From contig JBDRWD010000007.1 in assembly GCA_039802205.1 (NCBI GenBank), positions 2,433-66,432 of the forward strand: 64,000 nt of DNA, given 5' to 3'. The translations under genes and the position numbers were made by a program. Shown in pieces: positions 2,533 through 49,468 of this stretch (the first letter of the stretch is position 1; every line of letters starts with the position of its first letter). This DNA is from a candidate division WOR-3 bacterium. GTDB lineage: Bacteria > Hydrothermota > Tepidihabitantia > SM23-42 > JAOAFX01. The notes beneath the pieces were generated by a model, which did not search any database, was not told the DNA's origin, and worked only from the letters and a program-made list of their open reading frames with translations.

Positions 2533-4440
2533 ATGAAAATGTTGATTCCCATTTTTTTAATGATAGGTTTGGTTAGCGCTGGTAATTGGTTGGTTAATGG
2601 TGATTTTGAAGAAGCGCTTAACACCGGTTGGACTTCAACCCAGAGCGGCTCATATATCTACATTGACCGTGCAATAACCTATGAACCGGACCCGGATTAT
2701 GAAGTGCGGGTGGAAAAAGGCTCAGGCAATGGGTTTGCAACACTTTCTCAGACTATTGATATTACGACACCGAGTGAATTTACTTTTTCTACAAAGGCAA
2801 AGTTATATGCATATGATAATAATGCAGATACTCTGACTTACGCTGCCGCAGCAATAAGAATAGTTTACCGTAATGCCACGGGCGCACTTCTTGGAGAAAC
2901 CAGAATTTGCCAGTTCACAGCACCTTGTCCCTGGCAAAACACTTCAACAATCCATCTAATAACAGTTAGCGATTCACTCTGGCATAATTATTCATTCAAT
3001 CTCCAGACTGAACTTGGAAATCTTCCCGGCGTCAATCCAGCAAATGTGAAAAAGGTAGAAATTGCGCTCTATGATACAACTGCCCACACTTGTTGAGGGG
3101 CTTCACAATTGGCGAAGGTCTTCGCCGACGACATCAAACTAAATTATAACGGAACCCAGCTTTATCTCACCTTCATCAAAGCAAAAGTTTACGACTCGGG
3201 TGGCAATAACAATGGCCGGTTAGATCCAGGTGAAATCGCAAATATCACTGCATTATTAAAAAATATTGGCGGTGCTAATTTTACCAATCTGAATTCTACA
3301 CTCTCCACGAGCAGTCCTTATATCACTGTTACGGATAACTCGGGTTATTTTGGAACAATACTTATTGATAGCACCAAGGAGAATATTTCGGATCCTTATG
3401 TTGTGCAAGTGAGTCCCTCGACACCTCAAGGCCATATTGCTCAATTTCGTTTGATAGCAACTCAAGGTTCTTTTGTTGATACATTTTTCTTCAACTTGGT
3501 GGTTGGCACATATGATTATCTGGTCTGGAATCCAGATCCAACCCCCGGTTCCGGACAGACAATCCACAATTTATTAACATCCCTTGGCTACGCTGGCTTA
3601 TATTCAACTACCCTCCCGACTACTGAACTCAGCTTCTATCGCGCAATTCTGGTCTGTGTGGGTATCTATCCTAATAATTATATTATCGGTGCATCAAGCC
3701 CTGAGGCAACAGCACTCGTCAACTATGTCAATAGCGGTGGCAGACTCTATCTTGAAGGTGGAGATGTTTGGTATTATGACCCATTAACGGGCGGATATAA
3801 CTTCTGTCCATTATTTGGCATAAACGCAACTGAAGATGGTACGGACGATTTAGGTCCAATTCAAGGGCAACCAGGAACTTTCACCAATCAGATGTACTTC
3901 GGTTATGGTGGTGAGAATTCCTATATGGACCATATCAGCCCCAGTGGTACCGGAGCATTTTTGATCTTTAGAGATGTCGACCAAGGTTATGATTGTGCGG
4001 TAGCGCGTGATGCCGGGACATACCGAACTGTCGGGGCTTCTTTTGAACTTGGTTCTCTGGTTGATGGAAGTGGGGTTTCAACCCGAAGGGCATTGCTCGA
4101 TTCCATCCTCCATTTCTTCGGAATATTCCAGGTGCCTGTTGAAGAGAATAAGCAAGAAGGGCTCCAAAAGATATCTTTCCAGGTAATACCGAATCCATTC
4201 CAGAATAACTGCGTGGTTAAATTCGAAATTCGAAATCCGAAATCCGAAATTTCACTCAAGATTTTTGATGCAACAGGACGGTTGATAAAATCATTTAACC
4301 ATTTAACCAGTTACCAATTTAATAAAATCGTGTGGTCTGGTGACGATGAAATCGGCCGCAAGGTGCCCGCAGGTATTTATTTCGTGCGGTTGGAAACGGA
4401 TGGTCAAAAATATATTGAGAAGGTAATAAAGATAGAATAG
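2533..4440 (+). CDS. large secreted protein with T9SS C-terminal sorting domain; in-frame TGA at 3094-3096 (context TAHTC-U-GAS) joins tracked ORFs 2467..3096 and 3109..4440
   Basis: Both ORFs are in the same frame (coordinate mod 3 = 1). The N-terminal part has a signal peptide (MKMLIPIFLMIGLVSAG) but no CTD. The part after TGA has no signal peptide or ATG (its tracked start is TTG) but ends in a canonical T9SS CTD (..AGIYFVRLETDGQKYIEKVIKIE). The start codon is uncertain; ATG 2515 and ATG 2533 (after AAAGGGGA) are both possible. Confidence 0.5.
3109..3128 (+). promoter_or_regulatory. putative SECIS hairpin (uuGGCGAA-GGUC-UUCGCCga) 14 nt downstream of UGA 3094
   Basis: 6-8 bp stem with a GGUC loop. 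Confidence 0.45.
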
Positions 4441-4448
4441 TTAGAAAT

Positions 4449-4477
4449 CAGGAAGGGAGTATTTATGCTCCCTTCCT
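4449..4477 (+). terminator. Rho-independent terminator-like hairpin after the 2533..4440 gene
   Basis: AGGAAGGGAG-uauuuaug-CUCCCUUCCU, a 9-10 bp stem, followed by GAAAAUCUUUUA. Confidence 0.55.
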
Positions 4478-4520
4478 GAAAATCTTTTATAATGGGACTT
4501 GAGTCTAAAAAGGGGGTTTT

Positions 4521-6809
4521 ATGGGCAGTAAGAAACTTATCTGGATTGTTTTAATTGTCGCCACTGCATCATTTGCCCAGTGGCAGGCAATAGGTCCTTA
4601 TGGTGGCTATGTCCGCTCGGTGGTTGTATCACAAACCAATGACAATATTGTCTATGCCGCATCTTATGCCAATCCCACTGTAGTTGCAAAATCCACTAAT
4701 GGTGGTTCAACCTGGACCACAATGGGTGTAATTCCAAATCAGGCTTATTGTATGGCAATCGACCCAACGAATGATAACAAACTATATGCGGGAAGCGGAC
4801 ATGTAATATATCGTTCAACTGATGGTGGTGTCAATTGGTTATCAACTACTATGAGCAATAAATATATCTATGGCATAGCGGTCCATCCAACAGCACCTAC
4901 AACTATTTGCGCCTCGGGTATGAGCTATACTGGAACAAAATGGGGGCTTGCATTCTTCAAAAGCACGGATTCAGGTGTAAACTGGACAACCACAGTAATC
5001 GACACCTCAGGCTCTTCAAACTATGGATATTGTCTCGCAATTGACCGTACGAATCCCAATACGATTTATGTTGGTGGCTATTCTTATACCACATCTTACA
5101 TACCCAGAATTTACAAATCCACAAATGGAGGCACTAACTGGATAGATGTGTCTACTGATACAGTATTTCAGAACGCTTATTATATTTACTCTATGGCTGT
5201 TCATCCAACGAATTCTAACATAGTCTATGCTGGTACTTATTTAAAAGGTATTATGCGTTCTACTGATGGCGGAAATTCCTGGACAAAGGTTTCCAGCAAT
5301 TACTACAACTACAGTATGGCAACGAGCATAGCATCACCTGATATCGCTTACTCTGGTTGTTATGGTGAGGTTTACAAAACGACAAATGCCGGAGTGTCCT
5401 GGACATCGGTAAGTTCAGGTTTGAGTGGAACTTCCTTCTATGGCCTTGCCGCAAGTGCACAGAATGCTTCTAATGTATATGCTGGAAATAACAAAGGTAT
5501 GTTTAAGACAACAACCGGCGGGTCTTCCTGGGTAAGTATCAATAACAATTTGAATATGGGTTCAATCCTCTCTTTTGCCAACGCGCCTTCTTCACCTTCA
5601 ACAATCTATACTTCCTTTGCTGAAGTTGGTGTATTCAAAACCACGAATTCGGGAAGCGACTGGATTCAATTACCTACGCCGGTTGGTTGTGGCAATATTT
5701 GCGAATTTGCGGTTGCTTATAACAATCCTAATATCATATATGCCTTAGAAGGAAGTGGTTGAGGGAACGCCGAGCTCTACAAGAGCACAGACGGCGGGTC
5801 CGTCTGGTCAAATGCGTTAGATGCATTTTATGTCGATGGTGGTGCAATGGCAATCGATCCGAATAATAGCTCAGTCCTTTATACCGGCGGATACATATAC
5901 AACGGTTCAACTTATGTAATGGTAGTCTCAAAATCTACTGATGGTGGCACAACCTGGGAAAGGGATACGCTAACAACTGATTATTGTATGTGCTATGCAC
6001 TTGCTATAGACCGGAGTAATTCCAATGTTGTTTATGCCGGTGGCTATAATGGTTATCTCTTCAAGACTACCAACGGCGGTATTACCTGGACTCTCTCCAA
6101 TACAGGACTAAGTGGGACAGTTTATGATATAAAAATTGGCTCAACCAAGGCAAACACCGTTTATGCAGGGACTTCTTCTGGTGTTTACAAATCAACGAAT
6201 GCTGGTGCAAGCTGGACAAGTACCGGTCTATCAGCAAATGTCCAGGCAGTCTTGATAAATCCTTCAAATGAAAATGAAATATATGCCGCAACGAGTAATG
6301 GTATCTACAAGAGCACTACTGGCGGTGGTGGCTGGACATTGATGAATACTGGGCTATTAAATACAAATACAACTTCTTTAGGAATTTACCCAAATAACTG
6401 GTTGTTCTGCGGGACAAATGGCACAGGAATGTATCGATGGAATATACAAGTTGGCGCGGAAGAATTTGAGGAGATTGGGAAGAGTATCTCCTTGCAGATC
6501 ACACCGAATCCATTCAGGAACTACTGCGTAGTTAAATTCCAAATCCCAAGCACCAAATCCCGAATTCCAAACAAATCCGCAATCCGCAATCCGAAATCCG
6601 AAATTTCTTTGAGGATCTATGATATTTCGGGTCGCGTTGTTAAGTCATTTAATCTTGAATCCTGTATCCTGAATCATGAATCCAGTATCGCCTGGTCGGG
6701 TGACGATAAGATGGGTCGCAAGGTGCCTGCGGGTATCTACTTTGTGCAACTTGATTCTGGTGAGTTCACTAAAATTGAGAAAGTAATTCTACTTAAAGGA
6801 AATAATTAG
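4521..6809 (+). CDS. BNR/Asp-box repeat (sialidase-like beta-propeller) secreted protein with T9SS C-terminal sorting domain; in-frame TGA at 5760-5762 (context ALEGSG-U-GNAELYKSTDGG) joins tracked ORFs 4521..5762 and 5847..6809
   Basis: Both ORFs are in the same frame (mod 3 = 0). S-x-D-G-G-x-x-W Asp-box repeats continue straight across the TGA. The first part has a signal peptide (MGSKKLIWIVLIVATASFAQW). The second part lacks an RBS or start, and its first ATG is 84 nt downstream. It ends in a T9SS CTD (..AGIYFVQLDSGEFTKIEKVILLK). Confidence 0.45.
5788..5806 (+). promoter_or_regulatory. candidate SECIS hairpin (CAGACGG-CGGGU-CCGUCUG) 25 nt downstream of UGA 5760
   Basis: 7-bp perfect stem with GU in the apical loop. 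The spacing is longer than in the other three cases. Confidence 0.35.
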
Positions 6810-6859
6810 TTCTTGACATAAGCTAAAAAATAAGTAAAATTTTAGTGAAAGGGGGTTTT

Positions 6860-7858
6860 ATGTCAAAATACTTATTATTACTGCTGGGCATTTCACTGCT
6901 CGGTTTTTCTGCCCAGCGGGTGGTTTTGTGTGAAGAGTTCTATCAAGAGGGCTGACCATCCTGTCCTGCAGCCAGCAGTACGCTGGACAATATCTGTGTT
7001 CAATATTCCACGCGCATTGCTGCGATTGAGATGCATCTTTCCAGCAGTTATCCGCTGTACTGTCCTGAAGCATATGCCCGGATGCAATACTACCCAAGTT
7101 CAAACTGGTATACGCCCAATCTTATCCTTGATGGCACACCAAGAGGAAGCAGTTATAGCTCCTGGCAATCATACATTGTTACACGGATGAATCAACCTGC
7201 ACCGATGCGTATCTCAATGTGGGGGACTTATGGCTCTGGTTCTGGCACAATCTATGCCCGATTCCGTAATGATTCAACTGCCTCAGTTACTGCCTATGTC
7301 TATTTTGTTATTACTGAAGATAGCCTCTATTATGTTACTCCATACGGTGACCAGTGGCATAATCATGTTGCACGCGATTATGTCCCAAACCAAATCGGCC
7401 AACAAGTGACAATTCCAGCGGGTGATTCAGTAACAGTCTCGCAAAATTTCACAATCCAATCAGGCTGGAATGTCAATCGCTGCAACATTGTAACCTGGAT
7501 ACAGAATAATTCCACACGCGAAGTGTATCAGGCAGCATTTATCAAAGTAACGGACTTGACAGGAGTTGAAGAAACGAATAAGGCAACTGGAATATCAACA
7601 ATTTCCTCCATTCCCAATCCTTGCGTCAATGGTACAACATTCCAGTTTAATGTTAGTAAAGATGGTAAATGGAAACTTTTGCTATATGACGCCTTGGGTC
7701 GCGAGATTCAGCGATTTGAAGGAATCGGTCAGGGTGGTATTCAGACTGTCGAATGGAATCTTTTTGACAATAATAACCATCGGGTAAAACCGGGTGTTTA
7801 CTTCTACCAGCTCCTCGGTCCGGACTTGAAGGCAAACGGCAAGATCGTGGTAAGGTAA
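6860..7858 (+). CDS. secreted thioredoxin-fold protein with T9SS C-terminal sorting domain; in-frame TGA at 6953-6955 read as selenocysteine in a U-P-S-C (UxxC) motif; paralog of 1440..2474
   Basis: ATG 6860 after AAAGGGGG gives the signal peptide MSKYLLLLLGISLLGFSAQ. The frame is open across TGA 6953 into tracked ORF 7031..7858 (same frame, mod 3 = 2). The context VVLCEEFYQEG-U-PSCPAASSTLDNICVQYSTRIAAIEMH aligns with the paralog VVVAEMIGDET-U-SSCAAASGTLAQIV..RIAAIDVH. The CTD is ..KPGVYFYQLLGPDLKANGKIVVR. Confidence 0.6.
6972..6986 (+). promoter_or_regulatory. putative SECIS hairpin (CCAGC-AGUAC-GCUGG) 16 nt downstream of UGA 6953
   Basis: 5-bp stem with an AGUAC loop. Relative to the paralog hairpin (GCAAGC/GCUUGC, loop GGUAC) the stem has compensatory changes while the loop keeps GUAC. 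Confidence 0.5.
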
Positions 7859-8195: not shown

Positions 8196-8390
8196 TTTCT
8201 ATCTCCTTTCGTCCTCGAGTCCTTGCCGATCCATCTATGATAGTGTAACAAGTTTTCTACATTTTTGGTGATATGGCAAATTAGAATGTTAAATTCACGA
8301 AGTTTGTCGTATTCTCACAACACTCGTCTATTTGAAAATAGGTCTTATTCGCAAATACAATTTTTCAGAGGCTATATTCATAAACTTCTC

Positions 8391-8801
8391 TCATTCTAAT
8401 TTTTCGCCACAATTCCAGCAATATATCGCATCTCCTGGAACATCTTTTTTACAATTACTACAAGTAAAATCTGATTTCTTCTCCACATTGCTCAAGTCCT
8501 TGTTGCACATATTGCAGATTTTTTTATTGGTTTTTGTACCACAGTATGGGCAAAATTTTATATTTGAAGTCTGTTGAGGTAAATCTTCTTTTTCTTTGAC
8601 TTTCTTTTCAGGAGTGTTTATATCACCCGCAATCGTTTGGCGACCACAAACAAATAATATGCCTAATAATATTCCAACTATGGGACTAAAGAGGACGCTG
8701 TTCCAAAAGCCTTTTGAATACGAAAGACCCACATTTTTCCATGCATTAGCAACAACAAGACATAGTAGCAACCAAAGTAAAATAATTATAAGAATTAACA
8801 T
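8391..8801 (-). CDS. membrane protein with C-terminal double zinc-ribbon (CPYCG..CNMC, CSNC..CWNCG)
   Basis: 136-aa ORF with two N-terminal TM helices and a Cys4 x2 C-terminus. Confidence 0.55.
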   Translation of the reverse strand: MLILIIILLWLLLCLVVANAWKNVGLSYSKGFWNSVLFSPIVGILLGILFVCGRQTIAGDINTPEKKVKEKEDLPQQTSNIKFCPYCGTKTNKKICNMCNKDLSNVEKKSDFTCSNCKKDVPGDAIYCWNCGEKLE

Positions 8802-8829
8802 ACAAAATTGTATATATAATTTAATAAAA

Positions 8830-8835
8830 AGTCAA
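8830..8835 (-). promoter_or_regulatory. candidate -35 box (TTGACT) for 8391..8801 at the gene-proximal edge of repeat copy A
   Basis: GGCTCAGACC-N9-TTGACT arrangement is shared with copy B. Confidence 0.3.
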
Positions 8836-8840
8836 GGTGG

Positions 8841-9130
8841 AAAGGGTCTGAGCCTTCTCTACTTTTTGTCAAATTATTTTTATGCGCTGGATTATTAGGG
8901 GTAGCCGCGCCCTTCAGGGTGCGAGATATTCTGGGATGTAAAAAGATTTATCCGCAGGCTAAAGCCTGCGCCTACCATTTTACCGGTTACCACCCAAGGA
9001 CTTCAGGTTGGCTTTTTTATTTAAGCAAGGCTAAAGCCTTGCCCTACAAAAATCCCAACGCTAAATTATTGATGACCCTTTCAAATCTTGCCCATGGGTT
9101 TTATCGTTCCTTCATAAGATATAAAAATAT
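8841..9130. repeat. structured intergenic repeat element, copy A (second copy at 51731..51935)
   Basis: Roughly 80-90% identity to copy B over ~200 nt (GGTCTGAGCC..AAATTATTTTTATGCGC..GGTAGCCGCrCCCTTCAGGGTGCGArAT..ATTTATCCGCAGGCTAAAGCCTGC..CCCTACAAAAATCCCAAC..TTGCCCATG..TTTTATCGT). Copy A carries an extra ~70-nt inserted hairpin module (CAAGGC-UAAA-GCCUUG). Confidence 0.65.
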
Positions 9131-9286
9131 GGAGAGAACTCAGTTTAGAAATCGGGTTGTTTAATAAAAATAGAATATCTTATCCAGATAATTAAAATGT
9201 GATATACTATATCCAAAAAGTGTCTATGATCACAATAGCCATTCCTGGGGAGGTATACATTAGAGGAGCCAAAAGAGAAACGCAAA

Positions 9287-23245: not shown

Positions 23246-23312
23246 AATCTTCTCCTTTCTACCCCTTTTTAATCCTCCCCCTTCAAAGGGGAAAGATTTT
23301 TGAGGGATGAAA

Positions 23313-23394
23313 TGCCGGAGGGGGGATTTGAACCCCCACGCCCGAAGGCCTACGCCCCTCAAACGTATGTGTCTGCCAGTTCCACCACCCCGGC
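23313..23394 (-). tRNA. tRNA-Leu (anticodon GAG), type II with long variable arm, no encoded CCA
   Basis: Acceptor GCCGGGG/CUCCGGC, anticodon stem UACGU/GCGUA with loop UUGAGGG, variable arm GCCuucgGGC, T-loop UUCAAAU. Confidence 0.85.
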
Positions 23395-23514
23395 ACAAAT
23401 AATGGATTCTGTTTAATCTCCTGATATTATAACTAAAATCGGAAATTTGTCAATTATTAACTTGTTGACTTTTTAGCAATTTTAAATAGAATAGTCCATG
23501 CACTGGAGAAAAAT

Positions 23515-25258: not shown

Positions 25259-25465
25259 TTGATCATGGCTCAATTTGATAAGATATTATGTCCTTATTGT
25301 CTTTTCAGTGCCAAATATGTGGATCTGGTAGTCAATCCAGAAGGTGATTATATCTGTCCGGAATGCAATGCCACATTCTTTTATGAAGAGATAATGCAGT
25401 TATATGGGTTTACCCAGATGTTTATTAATGCCCGACCAACCGGGCAGGAACCATTTACTCTTTAG
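25259..25465 (+). CDS. small zinc-ribbon protein (CPYC..CPEC)
   Basis: 68-aa ORF with two CxxC pairs. Confidence 0.45.
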   Translation: MIMAQFDKILCPYCLFSAKYVDLVVNPEGDYICPECNATFFYEEIMQLYGFTQMFINARPTGQEPFTL

Positions 25466-26439
25466 TCTTCCTCAAGCCGGACTTTAAAATCTCCTTTTAC
25501 TATCTCCCCGATTACCAGAGGCTTTAGGGCTTTAAAAAATTTTAGATTTTGCGGCTTTATTATCGCCACCATGCCGATGCCCATATTGAACACCCGGTAC
25601 ATCTCATCTTCTGGAACCTTGCCGATCTCCTGGATGATTTTGAAAATTGCCGGAACCTGCCACGATTTCTTTCGGATCACGGCGGCGGTCCCCAGAGGCA
25701 GGATGCGGGCAATGTTATCATAAAATCCACCGCCGGTAATATGGGCAAGGCCATTTATATATTTTAATCTGGGTTCCAGTATCTGACGATAAGACTTATG
25801 GACTTTCAGAAGTTCCTCACCCAGTGTACATTTGAGTGCTGGAAGATAGGTGGTGAGGGTATATTTGCGGAATAAAACACGGCGCGCCAGCGTATAGCCA
25901 TTGGTGTGGAGCCCTGAGGATCTAAACCCCAAAAGGATATCTCCGGGCTCAATACGTTGGGGATCGATATAATCCTTTTTATCTACGATCCCCACGATAA
26001 AACCCACCAAATCATAAACCCCGCGGGGGTAAAACCGTTTCATTTGGGCGGTCTCGCCCCCGATCAATGCAATCCTTTCTTTTTTGCAGGCTCTGGTTAT
26101 CCCTTTTATCACCTCAGTGAGCACCGCATCACTGACTTCCGAGAACCCAATATAATCCATAAAGAATAATGGTTGGGCACCAGTGGTGAGGATGTCATTG
26201 ACACAATGGTTGACTATGTCCATACCCACTGTAGTATGGATACCCATTGCACAGGCAATAAGGATTTTGGTCCCCACTCCATCGACACTGGCGATGAGCA
26301 GTTTATCGTCAATCGGATAGATACCGCCGAATAATCCAAAGGTTGATTCCTGGGGAAGGGTTGAGACAATTTGTTTTCCGAATTTCTTTTTTAATAAGTT
26401 CAAGCGCTTGATATCCACGCCGGCATTTTTGTATAACAT
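25462..26439 (-). CDS. purM: phosphoribosylformylglycinamidine cyclo-ligase (AIR synthetase)
   Basis: N-terminus YKNAGVDI, plus SVDGVGTK, and overall PurM-family length. Confidence 0.9.
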   Translation of the reverse strand: MLYKNAGVDIKRLNLLKKKFGKQIVSTLPQESTFGLFGGIYPIDDKLLIASVDGVGTKILIACAMGIHTTVGMDIVNHCVNDILTTGAQPLFFMDYIGFSEVSDAVLTEVIKGITRACKKERIALIGGETAQMKRFYPRGVYDLVGFIVGIVDKKDYIDPQRIEPGDILLGFRSSGLHTNGYTLARRVLFRKYTLTTYLPALKCTLGEELLKVHKSYRQILEPRLKYINGLAHITGGGFYDNIARILPLGTAAVIRKKSWQVPAIFKIIQEIGKVPEDEMYRVFNMGIGMVAIIKPQNLKFFKALKPLVIGEIVKGDFKVRLEED

Positions 26440-29164: not shown

Positions 29165-30290
29165 TCAACTATTGAATGATTTTTTTGCTAACATCTTGAG
29201 ATAGGCATAGATAAAATCGTCGATCTCCCCATCCATGACCCGCTCAATCTGAGTGGTTTCATAACCGGTCCGGTGGTCCTTTACCAGTTTATAAGGGTGA
29301 AAAATGTAAGAACGGATCTGATGTCCCCAGGCAATCTCGGTCTTTTGTGCTTCCAATTTATTCAATTTTTCTTCCTCAAGACGTTTGTAGTAATCGTAAA
29401 GACGGGCTTTCAAGATTTTCAGGGCGGTCATCTTATTTAAATACTGAGAACGTTCATTCTGACATTGCACGGTGATACCAGTAGGAAGATGGGTGATGCG
29501 GACTGCGGAAGAGACTTTATTCACATTCTGCCCTCCATGACCCCCAGCACGGAAGGTGTCAATTTTTAAATCATCTTCTTTTATTTCAAAACTCACTTCT
29601 TCTACTTCCGGATAGACAAAGACCGAAGCAAATGAGGTGTGTCGTTTCTGGTTGGCATCAAAAGGGGATATCCTGACCAGGCGATGGATTCCGGTCTCAG
29701 CTTTCAATAATCCGTAGGCGTATTTACCATGAATTTCAATCGTGGCATCCTTTATTCCAGCAACCTCACCCGGTAAGAGATCAATTATCCGGTAAGTGAA
29801 TTTTTTTGTCTGGAGATAACGGGTGTACATCCGAAACAACATCTCTGCCCAGTCGCAGGACTCTGTCCCACCTGCTCCCGGATGGATGGTGAGCAAGCAA
29901 TTTTTGGTATCATCTTCACCTCCTAATAATAACTGGATCTCTAAATCTTTGATCTTTTGTTCAATCGCTTTTAATTCCTGCTCGGCATCCTTGAGCAGTT
30001 CATCATCCTCTCCAGTAGCGAGTTCGAGGAGTTCATTTAAAAATGTCAAACCGTTTTCAATTTCCTTTAGCCGTGCCAAATATTCCTGTTTCTGATCAAT
30101 CTCTGCCATTATCTGCTGGGCACGTTCTTTGTTTGCCCAGAAGGTGGGTTGATTGGTTTCTTCCTGGAGTTTCTTTAATTGATTGGCGATACGATCGGGG
30201 TCAAAGATACTCCTTCAGGCTTTCGTATTTCTTTTTCAATTCCTTTACTTCATTGATGGTGATAGAGATGTATTTACCAGATTTTTTCAT
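29165..30290 (-). CDS. prfB: peptide chain release factor 2, with programmed +1 ribosomal frameshift at CUU UGA C (UGA = plus 30201-30203)
   Basis: ORF0 from ATG 30288-30290 encodes [29 protein letters not shown], then UGA. The sequence AAGGAGUAUCUUUGAC is the canonical RF2 shift site with an internal SD. The +1 frame continues in frame with tracked ORF 29165..30109, which carries [12 protein letters not shown] and the RF2-specific region. Confidence 0.9.
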
Positions 30291-45221: not shown

Positions 45222-45297
45222 GGCGCCATCGTCTAACCTGGTTCAGGACATCGCCCTCTCAAGGCGAAGATTACGGGTTCGAATCCCGTTGGCGCCA
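45222..45297 (+). tRNA. tRNA-Glu (anticodon CUC), no encoded CCA
   Basis: Acceptor GGCGCCA/UGGCGCC, anticodon stem UCGCC/GGCGA with loop CUCUCAA, T-arm ACGGG-UUCGAAU-CCCGU. Confidence 0.85.
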
Positions 45298-49171: not shown

Positions 49172-49468
49172 TATCCGGTCGCGCAACCCCAATTCGCCGA
49201 CAAAACCAGGAACAGCAAGGCAAAGGACTCAGCCCAGGCACCCTTATGACCAGCCCTCTGTCTACTTACCGTTGCTTCCTTCCGGACCTGGCGGGGTTTG
49301 TAGACGGTGCTTTCATAAGACCCGAGCCTCAACGCCCTTTACTCCTTACTGTTGCCCCTGAGATTGCCGGCTCCAAGGGGTCTTCACCCCGCATGAGCGG
49401 ATTTCGGGTCCTCCCATCTTGCGACGGGATTCAGGGCACCGCTAGCTCCCCGTTTAGCACGACCGGAA
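49172..49468 (-). ncRNA. ffs: signal recognition particle RNA, long (Bacillus-type) form with Alu domain
   Basis: Minus-strand GUGCUAAACGGGGAGCUAGCGGUGCCCUGAAUCC matches the B. subtilis scRNA 5' Alu region (GUGCUAAGCGGGGAGGUAGCGGUGCCCUG). The domain IV hallmark CAGGUCCGGAAGGAAGCA is present. An 11-bp terminal helix pairs 5' UCCGGUCGUGC with 3' GCGCGACCGGA. It sits immediately upstream of dnaX, as scr does in Bacillus. Ends are ±10 nt. Confidence 0.85.

Follow-up and report, generated by a model that had tools for sequence, protein, structure and literature searches.

An in-frame UGA next to a cysteine codon very probably encodes selenocysteine in a predicted secreted protein family of WOR-3 bacteria that is annotated as two genes

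This study concerns the in-frame TGA at position 3094 in a 64,000-nucleotide stretch of contig JBDRWD010000007.1 (positions 2,433 to 66,432 of the forward strand, assembly GCA_039802205.1) from a candidate division WOR-3 bacterium. The whole stretch is referred to here as the window, and positions are counted from its first letter unless another locus is named. We conclude that the UGA at 3094 is very probably decoded as selenocysteine (Sec) inside one gene, and that the public annotation almost certainly cuts a widespread family of predicted secreted selenoproteins, represented in this WOR-3 bacterium, wrongly into two genes. The observations made directly are a conserved TGA, a covarying hairpin behind it, the continuity of a protein domain across the codon, the Sec machinery in related genomes, and UGA codons that act as stops elsewhere in the window.

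The open frame around the TGA extends from 2467 as far as the TAG at 4438-4440, with position 3094 as its sole in-frame interruption. Bases 3094-3096 read TGA directly after a TGT cysteine codon at 3091-3093, which gives the context YDTTAHTC-TGA-GASQLAKVFADDIKL and, over a longer stretch of the same frame, KKVEIALYDTTAHTC-TGA-GASQLAKVFADDIKLNYNG. Starting from the ATG at 2533, read-through yields 187 + 1 + 447 = 635 residues, while another possible start, the ATG at 2515, would give 641 codons. An initial annotation, made from the letters of the window and their open reading frames (ORFs), had placed TGA 3094 in a Cys-Sec dyad of a secreted protein of about 635 residues with a signal peptide and a C-terminal sorting domain of the type IX secretion system (T9SS). 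Both claims held on closer analysis, as the TGT-TGA pair lies at 3091-3096 within one open frame (2533-4440), the N-terminus of the 635-residue product is hydrophobic, and the sorting domain exceeds the cut-offs of both PF18962 and TIGR04183. The parts of the joined gene that are needed first, including the candidate selenocysteine insertion sequence (SECIS), are as follows.

2533..4440, plus strand: joined coding sequence of 635 codons, open apart from TGA 3094, with the predicted selenocysteine as codon 188
3091..3096, plus strand: TGT-TGA, Cys-187 followed by the predicted selenocysteine codon (residue 188), read from the sequence; TGA kept in 34 + 79 related loci
3109..3128, plus strand: predicted bacterial SECIS hairpin UUGGCGAA-GGUC-UUCGCCGA, stems 3109-3116 / 3121-3128
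3111-3116 / 3121-3126, plus strand: conserved 6-bp core of this hairpin, with the apical loop GGUC at 3117-3120
4438..4479, plus strand: genuine stop codon TAG (4438-4440), then a terminator-like hairpin (4448-4479)

The related loci comprise 34 derived from genomes and 79 derived from metagenomes (113 in total), the latter having been retrieved by two peptide patterns of the N-terminal domain that exclude the TGA site, and the N- and C-terminal fragments were aligned separately. Every one of the 113 loci keeps the in-frame TGA, including those with only about 40% protein identity, and they come from independent assemblies and several phylum-level bins. When the DNA around homologues of the C-terminal domain was read in species-representative genomes, 32 loci were found to have the N-terminal domain, and 32/32 contain the TGA at a fixed spacing to AKVFADD. 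The metagenome loci have it in 79/79 cases, including two in which it is shifted by two codons to give C-x-x-U. In addition, the protein is conserved at the amino acid level on both sides of the codon, and 34 orthologues could be rebuilt likewise as about 185 + U + 447 residues. A lone TGA in a long ORF looks like a fresh nonsense mutation in an ordinary gene, but a pseudogene or a sequencing error is effectively refuted by the recurrence of the same codon in all of these loci and by the conservation of both halves.

Public records, in GenBank and elsewhere, show two ORFs at this locus, one of about 187-193 amino acids and one of 443 amino acids beginning at TTG 3109. The GenBank entry P0001 ("T9SS type A sorting domain-containing protein") is 100% identical to the 443-residue ORF, so the two-gene reading is the present public annotation; P0121 is the N-terminal fragment from a near-identical strain. 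According to this reading, UGA 3094 ends a secreted protein of 187 residues, and a separate T9SS-domain protein of 443 residues starts at TTG 3109, with GAGGGG at 3095-3100 as its ribosome-binding site. Gene callers yield exactly such a split in hundreds of database entries, and the TTG does stand behind a purine-rich stretch in the window. However, the codon aligned to TTG 3109 in most orthologues is CTG, ACG, ATA, GAG, ATC, TAT or AAG, and because it varies in this way there is no conserved start for a second gene, which deprives the two-gene alternative outlined in the initial annotation of its start codon. Furthermore, in none of the 113 loci does the reading frame change across the TGA or the spacing depart from 5 codons.

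The database proteins give the same picture. A search with the joined protein returned 269 matches, and of the 120 listed nearly all have 380-456 residues and cover only the C-terminal 56-70% of the query; the N-termini of these downstream fragments vary (MAKVFADD, MARVLADD, LAKVFADD, MVNYTG, MRYLTF, MYDAGG) and correspond to the first available ATG, GTG or TTG. Among the matches listed, none of the downstream fragments has a signal peptide, though all carry the T9SS sorting domain. The search with the N-terminal part returned 102 matches, all of 155-205 residues and all with a signal peptide. All 102 end at most two residues from the TGA column, nearly all of them exactly there (..HTC, ..NGC, ..TSG, ..NNC, ..DNGT). 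The initial annotation had named orthologues that are consistently split, with a signal peptide on the second gene, as the finding that would speak for two genes; the orthologues are indeed split by gene callers, yet the signal peptide was never found on the second piece.

The division into domains also bears on the number of genes. The following features were assigned along the joined protein, and their support is given with each of them (CBM, carbohydrate-binding module; Ig, immunoglobulin; pLDDT, predicted local distance difference test).

2533..2583, plus strand: predicted signal peptide MKMLIPIFLMIGLVSAG, judged by eye, which would direct export to the periplasm
2584..3141, plus strand: predicted CBM-like beta-sandwich spanning the TGA, from the AlphaFold model of P0010 and Foldseek
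2926..2928, plus strand: Cys of a C-P-W motif, candidate partner of the selenocysteine; present in 34/34 close orthologues and in 149/197 family representatives (76%)
3103-3141, plus strand: predicted last strand of the CBM-like domain, QLAKVFADDIKLN, encoded after the TGA
3166..3504, plus strand: predicted Ig-like beta domain with the motif GNNNGRLDPGE; strands 20-132 of the P0001 model, pLDDT mostly >85
3517..4116, plus strand: predicted alpha/beta domain with the conserved motifs LEGGDVWYYD and VCVGIY; residues 137-336 of the P0001 model, pLDDT about 90
4186..4428, plus strand: T9SS type A C-terminal sorting domain (PF18962, residues 552-632; TIGR04183)

A similar hydrophobic N-terminus is present in 102/102 N-terminal fragments and in 34/34 rebuilt orthologues, and, judged by eye, a T9SS cargo with a signal peptide results only when both ORFs are joined. 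P0010 is a database protein of 628 residues with 50% identity to the joined product and is the sole junction-spanning protein among the matches listed. In its AlphaFold model the N-terminal domain has a pLDDT of 95-98, and a strand (168-178), a loop that contains the Sec position (179-185) and a further strand (186-198, ELAKVFADNVSLS; pLDDT about 90) follow each other. Foldseek relates this N-terminal domain to CBM16, CBM22, CBM11 and a porphyran-binding CBM over about 185 columns (TM score 0.5-0.62). The likeness is at the level of the fold only, as Pfam PF02018 (CBM_4_9) remained below threshold with 14.7 bits (cut-off 25.9). According to the model, the strand encoded after the TGA (AKVFADD) is the final beta-strand of the CBM-like domain that begins before it. 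In a separate model of the 443-residue ORF by itself (mean pLDDT 85.7), residues 1-17 fall below 50 and are disordered, which matches the expectation for an orphan strand. Two genes would therefore produce a first protein without the last strand of its fold and a second one that opens with this orphan strand.

Downstream of the sandwich, Foldseek matches the Ig-like domain weakly to Ig-like domains of GH2 enzymes and PorU. The fold match of the alpha/beta domain to the glutamine-amidotransferase part of aminodeoxychorismate synthase (TM score about 0.3) is weak, and the likeness to GATase1-like proteins does not support a functional assignment. By sequence, only the sorting domain could be matched in Pfam and the PDB, and the middle domains gave no match there. 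The same alpha/beta C-terminal module follows C25 peptidase domains in the WOR-3 proteins P0063 and P0116. The sorting domain scores 33.2 bits with PF18962 (cut-off 27) and 41.6 bits with TIGR04183 (cut-off 23), and its profile matches in the PDB are PorU, PG93 and FlgD Ig-like domains; several further proteins of the window also have a T9SS sorting domain.

The hairpin behind the UGA was evaluated comparatively. The UGA is separated from the first pair of the 8-bp stem by 12 nt (3097-3108) and from the GGCGAA core by 14 nt; the spacing of 14 nt given in the initial annotation is thus right for the conserved core and not for the full stem. All 113 loci keep both the TGA and the hairpin at the same spacing, which places the hairpin beyond chance. 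An exact scan for TGA, 12 nt, 8 nt, GGTC and 8 nt was passed by 110/113 loci, and among the three that failed two have a GGTC hairpin on inspection and one has the loop GGUU. Using 23 diverse sequences, the stem is paired in 87% of cells and the covariation score is 0.322, as opposed to 0.167 for shuffles, none of which (0/500) reached 0.322; slid controls scored 0.02-0.13. Across 76 distinct sequences, no non-standard pair occurs at any of the six inner positions of the stem, four of which show compensatory changes (GC/AU/CG/UA, GC/AU/UA, AU/GC/GU and AU/GC). At the protein level, the stem changes give the residue pairs Lys-Phe (AAG/UUC), Arg-Leu (AGG/CUC) and Glu-Ser (GAG/UCC). The RNA pairing constrains the protein here because the SECIS lies inside the codons of the last beta-strand (A-K-V-F-A-D), and the locus shows cleanly how an RNA element and a protein strand can restrict each other.

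Synonymous sites within the hairpin are constrained as well. Val is encoded by GTC in 34/34 orthologues, one Ala by GCG in 33/34 and another by GCC in 26/34, and none of the other sites among the 61 conserved four-fold ones has a third-position entropy as low as these three (median 1.72 bits, 34 orthologues). In the minimum free energy fold the SECIS hairpin forms with -10.1 kcal/mol when the UGA is excluded, and a different structure forms when it is included. The bacterial SECIS model (PMC13188914) allows a loop of 3-9 nt with a G in its first two positions, a stem of 4-16 bp, a distance of 16-37 nt from UGA to loop, and an energy of -7.5 kcal/mol or lower. All published values are respected by the GGUC loop of 4 nt, the stem of 6-8 bp, the distance of 20 nt and the energy of -10.1 kcal/mol. 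Judged from these comparisons of sequences, selection acts on the predicted hairpin at the RNA level, and the hairpin agrees with the SECIS model. The two-gene reading leaves both the covariation and the frozen synonymous sites unexplained, and we consider it extremely improbable; the preference for recoding over two genes expressed in the initial annotation was supported by every test that was run.

With a single gene preferred, the identity of the residue at the UGA has to be weighed. An exhaustive search of query residues 1-187 against 1.84 billion representative proteins found 184 relatives, and most of the 150 listed have about 187 amino acids, as expected from stopping at the TGA. A few long, distant homologues without a TGA continue across the column into the strand (..ARVLADD.. 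or ..AIVDDL..), with Ala (P0245), Asp (P0271) or Pro (P0247) at the Sec column.

Several observations weigh against selenocysteine. No Cys was found at the Sec column among the 120 listed of 269 full-length matches, the 102 N-terminal matches and the 150 listed of 184 representatives, so the Sec/Cys pair of homologues, which is a usual and not an obligatory sign of a selenoprotein, was not obtained, and the single-ORF orthologues with Cys at this column that the initial annotation had expected did not appear, as all orthologues keep the TGA. The 64-kb window contains no sel gene and no tRNA-Sec, and selD was not seen in the window or in the related loci examined. The signal from the single sequence is weak, with a z-score of -1.4 for the fold of 57 nt. 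As regards the role of the residue, neither the Cys at -1 nor the CPW Cys is universal, and 17/197 representatives have neither.

The missing Cys form, among the matches examined, is also a point for a reading in which the UGA is passed without selenocysteine, either under genetic code 4 or 25 (Trp or Gly) or by a near-cognate tRNA helped by the hairpin. Downstream hairpins can stimulate ordinary read-through too, and the record of P0010 shows Trp at the column. However, the DNA of the P0010 contig reads TAT AAC TGT TGA GGA GCA, and translation of this gene does not give the protein in the record. Since the underlying codon is TGA, the Trp is a call made with an alternative genetic code (code 4), and the candidate Trp form was rejected. 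P0010 (locus L079) corresponds to JGI Ga0190293_1015397, and records of this kind could mislead searches for Sec/Cys pairs.

UGA also keeps its meaning as a stop in this organism. The window encodes release factor 2 (prfB, 29165-30290, minus strand; TIGR00020, 455.7 bits, cut-off 370), and this gene carries the canonical programmed +1 frameshift site, AGGAG followed by CTT TGA C at 30206-30200. TGA is the terminator of 21/42 long ORFs in the window and of three orthologues of the studied gene. We conclude that TGA is not reassigned, because a release factor 2 with a UGA-dependent frameshift is present and half of the long ORFs end with this codon.

The machinery for selenocysteine was found beside orthologues in related genomes. 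In L080 (CBFGJZ010000037.1, 569-7206) the gene order is selA (TIGR00474, 440 bits, cut-off 268), selB (TIGR00475, 316 bits, cut-off 242), tRNA-Sec, an Omp28-like gene and the orthologue of the studied gene, which reads ..NGC-TGA-SGHCMARVLADD.. and has the hairpin GGCGAG-GGTC-CTCGCC. After this Sec cluster, a gene with a peroxiredoxin/thioredoxin fold lies at 8618-9145 of the same locus. In L022 a tRNA-Sec (ARAGORN; Rfam RF01852, 74.3 bits, cut-off 47) is located 1.5 kb upstream of the orthologue, and in L046 a tRNA-Sec stands beside the C-terminal winged helix of SelB (PF09107, 62.3 bits); L046 and L009, which holds an 84%-identical orthologue, belong to the same metagenome-assembled genome. 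An AIRS-domain gene of the window (25462-26439) was considered as a SelD candidate and rejected, as it is purM (318.7 bits). Read-through without selenocysteine is very unlikely in view of the stop function of UGA, the TGA in the DNA of P0010, the fit of the GGUC loop and its spacing to a SelB-binding SECIS, and the presence of selA, selB and tRNA-Sec next to orthologues. The initial annotation had called this site less clean than those of the neighbouring UxxC paralogues; it is instead the best supported, because its SECIS covaries clearly and selA, selB and tRNA-Sec adjoin an orthologue.

For the decoding as selenocysteine we propose the following course, in which both the insertion of selenocysteine and the secretion of the protein are inferred. 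The ribosome would meet the UGA at 3094, and the hairpin 12-14 nt downstream would act as a bacterial SECIS. SelB with Sec-tRNA(Sec) would bind the apical GGUC loop and deliver selenocysteine, and translation would then go on. The product would consist, in this order, of the signal peptide, the CBM-like sandwich, the Ig-like domain, the alpha/beta domain and the T9SS sorting domain, with the Cys-Sec pair placed in the loop before the final strand of the CBM-like domain. Once exported by the Sec translocon, it would be taken by the type IX system either to the cell surface or into the medium.

The role of the selenocysteine can only be approached from its surroundings. A Cys directly precedes it in 28/34 close orthologues and in about 73% of the family representatives. 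The CPW Cys and the Cys at -1 were considered as linked partners of the selenocysteine, and this was rejected, as the four classes (113, 36, 31 and 17 of 197 representatives) show no clear association; the CPW Cys is a partner by inference only. A solvent-exposed Cys-Sec centre that is redox-active or binds a metal or chalcogen is a plausible, if speculative, function that falls short of being probable, and such a centre might act jointly with the Cys of the CPW motif and with the secreted UxxC Omp28-like selenoproteins encoded nearby. Alternatively, the pair may form a purely structural selenenylsulfide. Our confidence in any specific biochemical role is low.

The studied gene is flanked by two Omp28-like T9SS genes, located at 1440-2474 (TGA 1548, motif T-U-SSC) and 6860-7858 (TGA 6953, motif G-U-PSC). 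Their TGA and covarying hairpin (GCCAGU-GGGAC-ACUGGC versus GCAAGC-GGUAC-GCUUGC) are kept in about 18 loci beside the orthologues. Just upstream of the first Omp28-like gene there is a perfect sigma-70 consensus (TTGACA-16-TATAAT, 1388-1415), and an 11/12 match to this consensus (6813-6840) lies upstream of the second. Between the studied gene and the second Omp28-like gene, 4521-6809 encodes a BNR/Sortilin-Vps10-like T9SS protein with an in-frame TGA at 5760 (..ALEGSG-U-GNAELYKSTDGG..) and a hairpin, CAGACGG-CGGGU-CCGUCUG, that begins 25 nt after it; this would be the fourth candidate selenoprotein gene in 8 kb. A third TGA family (..TDDA-U-GFCALAE.., hairpin CGCUC-GCG-GAGCG) was observed just downstream of the orthologues in L014, L017, L022, L024, L025 and L026, at about 4500-4620. 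The TGA at 8575 (ORF 8293-8898) was rejected as a Sec codon and regarded as spurious, as this ORF shows neither coding-like sequence nor a hairpin.

Tandem repeats of 7 nt (AAATTCG / AAATCCG) occur at 4219-4251 (4.7 copies) and 6534-6604 (about 10 copies), inside the coding sequence for the sorting domains of two of the candidate selenoprotein genes, where they encode ..FEIRNPKSEI... Because the unit is not a multiple of three, adding or losing a single copy would change the reading frame, and the repeat could be a site of phase variation. The remaining RNA features of the window, including the signal recognition particle (SRP) RNA, are listed here.

49179-49462, minus strand: bacterial large SRP RNA (123 bits), adjoining a dnaX-like gene
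23312-23395: tRNA-Leu(GAG)
45222-45297: tRNA-Glu(CTC)

In practical terms, hundreds of public entries appear to be mis-annotated as a hypothetical protein of ~187 residues and a T9SS protein of 443 residues without a signal peptide, and knowledge of the Sec codon repairs these split entries and gives a simple rule for the family. The reading would place selenocysteine on the surface of uncultivated anaerobes, in a CBM-like protein secreted by the T9SS. The secreted selenoprotein neighbours, together with the Sec machinery alongside them in one genome, suggest that selenium is needed for chemistry outside the cell. More tentatively, and with less than an even chance, the studied protein may be the founding member of a large surface family in WOR-3, Stahlbacteria, Cloacimonadota and related uncultivated lineages that always uses selenocysteine, has no Cys form and is part of a conserved cluster of T9SS-secreted selenoproteins. 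Besides the studied gene, this cluster would comprise the Omp28-like UxxC neighbours and, in the window, the BNR-repeat protein, and in at least one genome it directly adjoins selA, selB and selC. If this is true, the cluster would point to a dedicated extracellular system for selenium redox chemistry or metal binding where disulfides are unstable.

To place the family among known ones, it was compared with models and literature data. The 119 prokaryotic selenoprotein families and subfamilies listed in a 2026 review (PMC13188914) do not include it, no model of NCBIfam release 20 matches the protein apart from the sorting domain, and nothing relevant was found in the literature on selenoproteins with WOR-3, type IX secretion or TIGR04183. 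The closest described relatives of its neighbours are the Omp28-related selenoproteins (NF045500, "hypothetical protein GOS_C", UxxC), of which the flanking genes with Sec codons 1548 and 6953 are distant relatives scoring 37 and 62 bits at a cut-off of 200. These flanking genes share with the studied gene a T9SS domain, a signal peptide and an in-frame TGA followed by a covarying hairpin, and they are syntenic with it in many genomes. In contrast, the studied gene itself does not match NF045500 and has a CBM-like fold and a C-U motif instead of UxxC.

Proteins with adjacent Cys and Sec include animal thioredoxin reductase (GCUG) and the bacterial HgcA, SaoL, SaoC and MbdU, in which, as in the TCUG of the studied protein, Cys adjoins Sec and Gly often follows. 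The dyad of thioredoxin reductase forms a redox-active selenenylsulfide. The bacterial examples (HgcA, SaoL, SaoC and MbdU) are tied to metal or organometal chemistry (table in PMC13188914). Unlike in these proteins, to which there is no relation in sequence or fold, the dyad lies here in an internal loop of a predicted secreted beta-sandwich and not at the C-terminus or in a cytoplasmic enzyme, and its Cys is absent in about a quarter of the family. The families CBM4/9, CBM16 and CBM22 share with the N-terminal domain the beta-jelly-roll fold found by Foldseek, an N-terminal NGDFE motif and a C-terminal "vfaDDv.l" strand. To our knowledge, no known CBM contains selenocysteine.

The bacterial SECIS, with E. 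coli fdhF as its archetype and the bSECISearch consensus, is likewise a stem-loop that closely follows the Sec-UGA inside the coding region and has a small loop starting with GG-U, and the distance of 20 nt from UGA to loop, the stem length and the energy found here are all within the model. The loop of E. coli fdhF is also GGUC and lies two nucleotides closer to the UGA. The element described here differs from the archetype in that no bulged U is seen in its stem, its sequence is otherwise unrelated, and its stem and loop consist of codons for a conserved beta-strand, so that the amino acids co-vary with the stem. The proposed recoding mechanism is the standard bacterial one, and two unusual features of the family are its lack of a Cys form among the matches examined and its nature as a predicted T9SS cargo.

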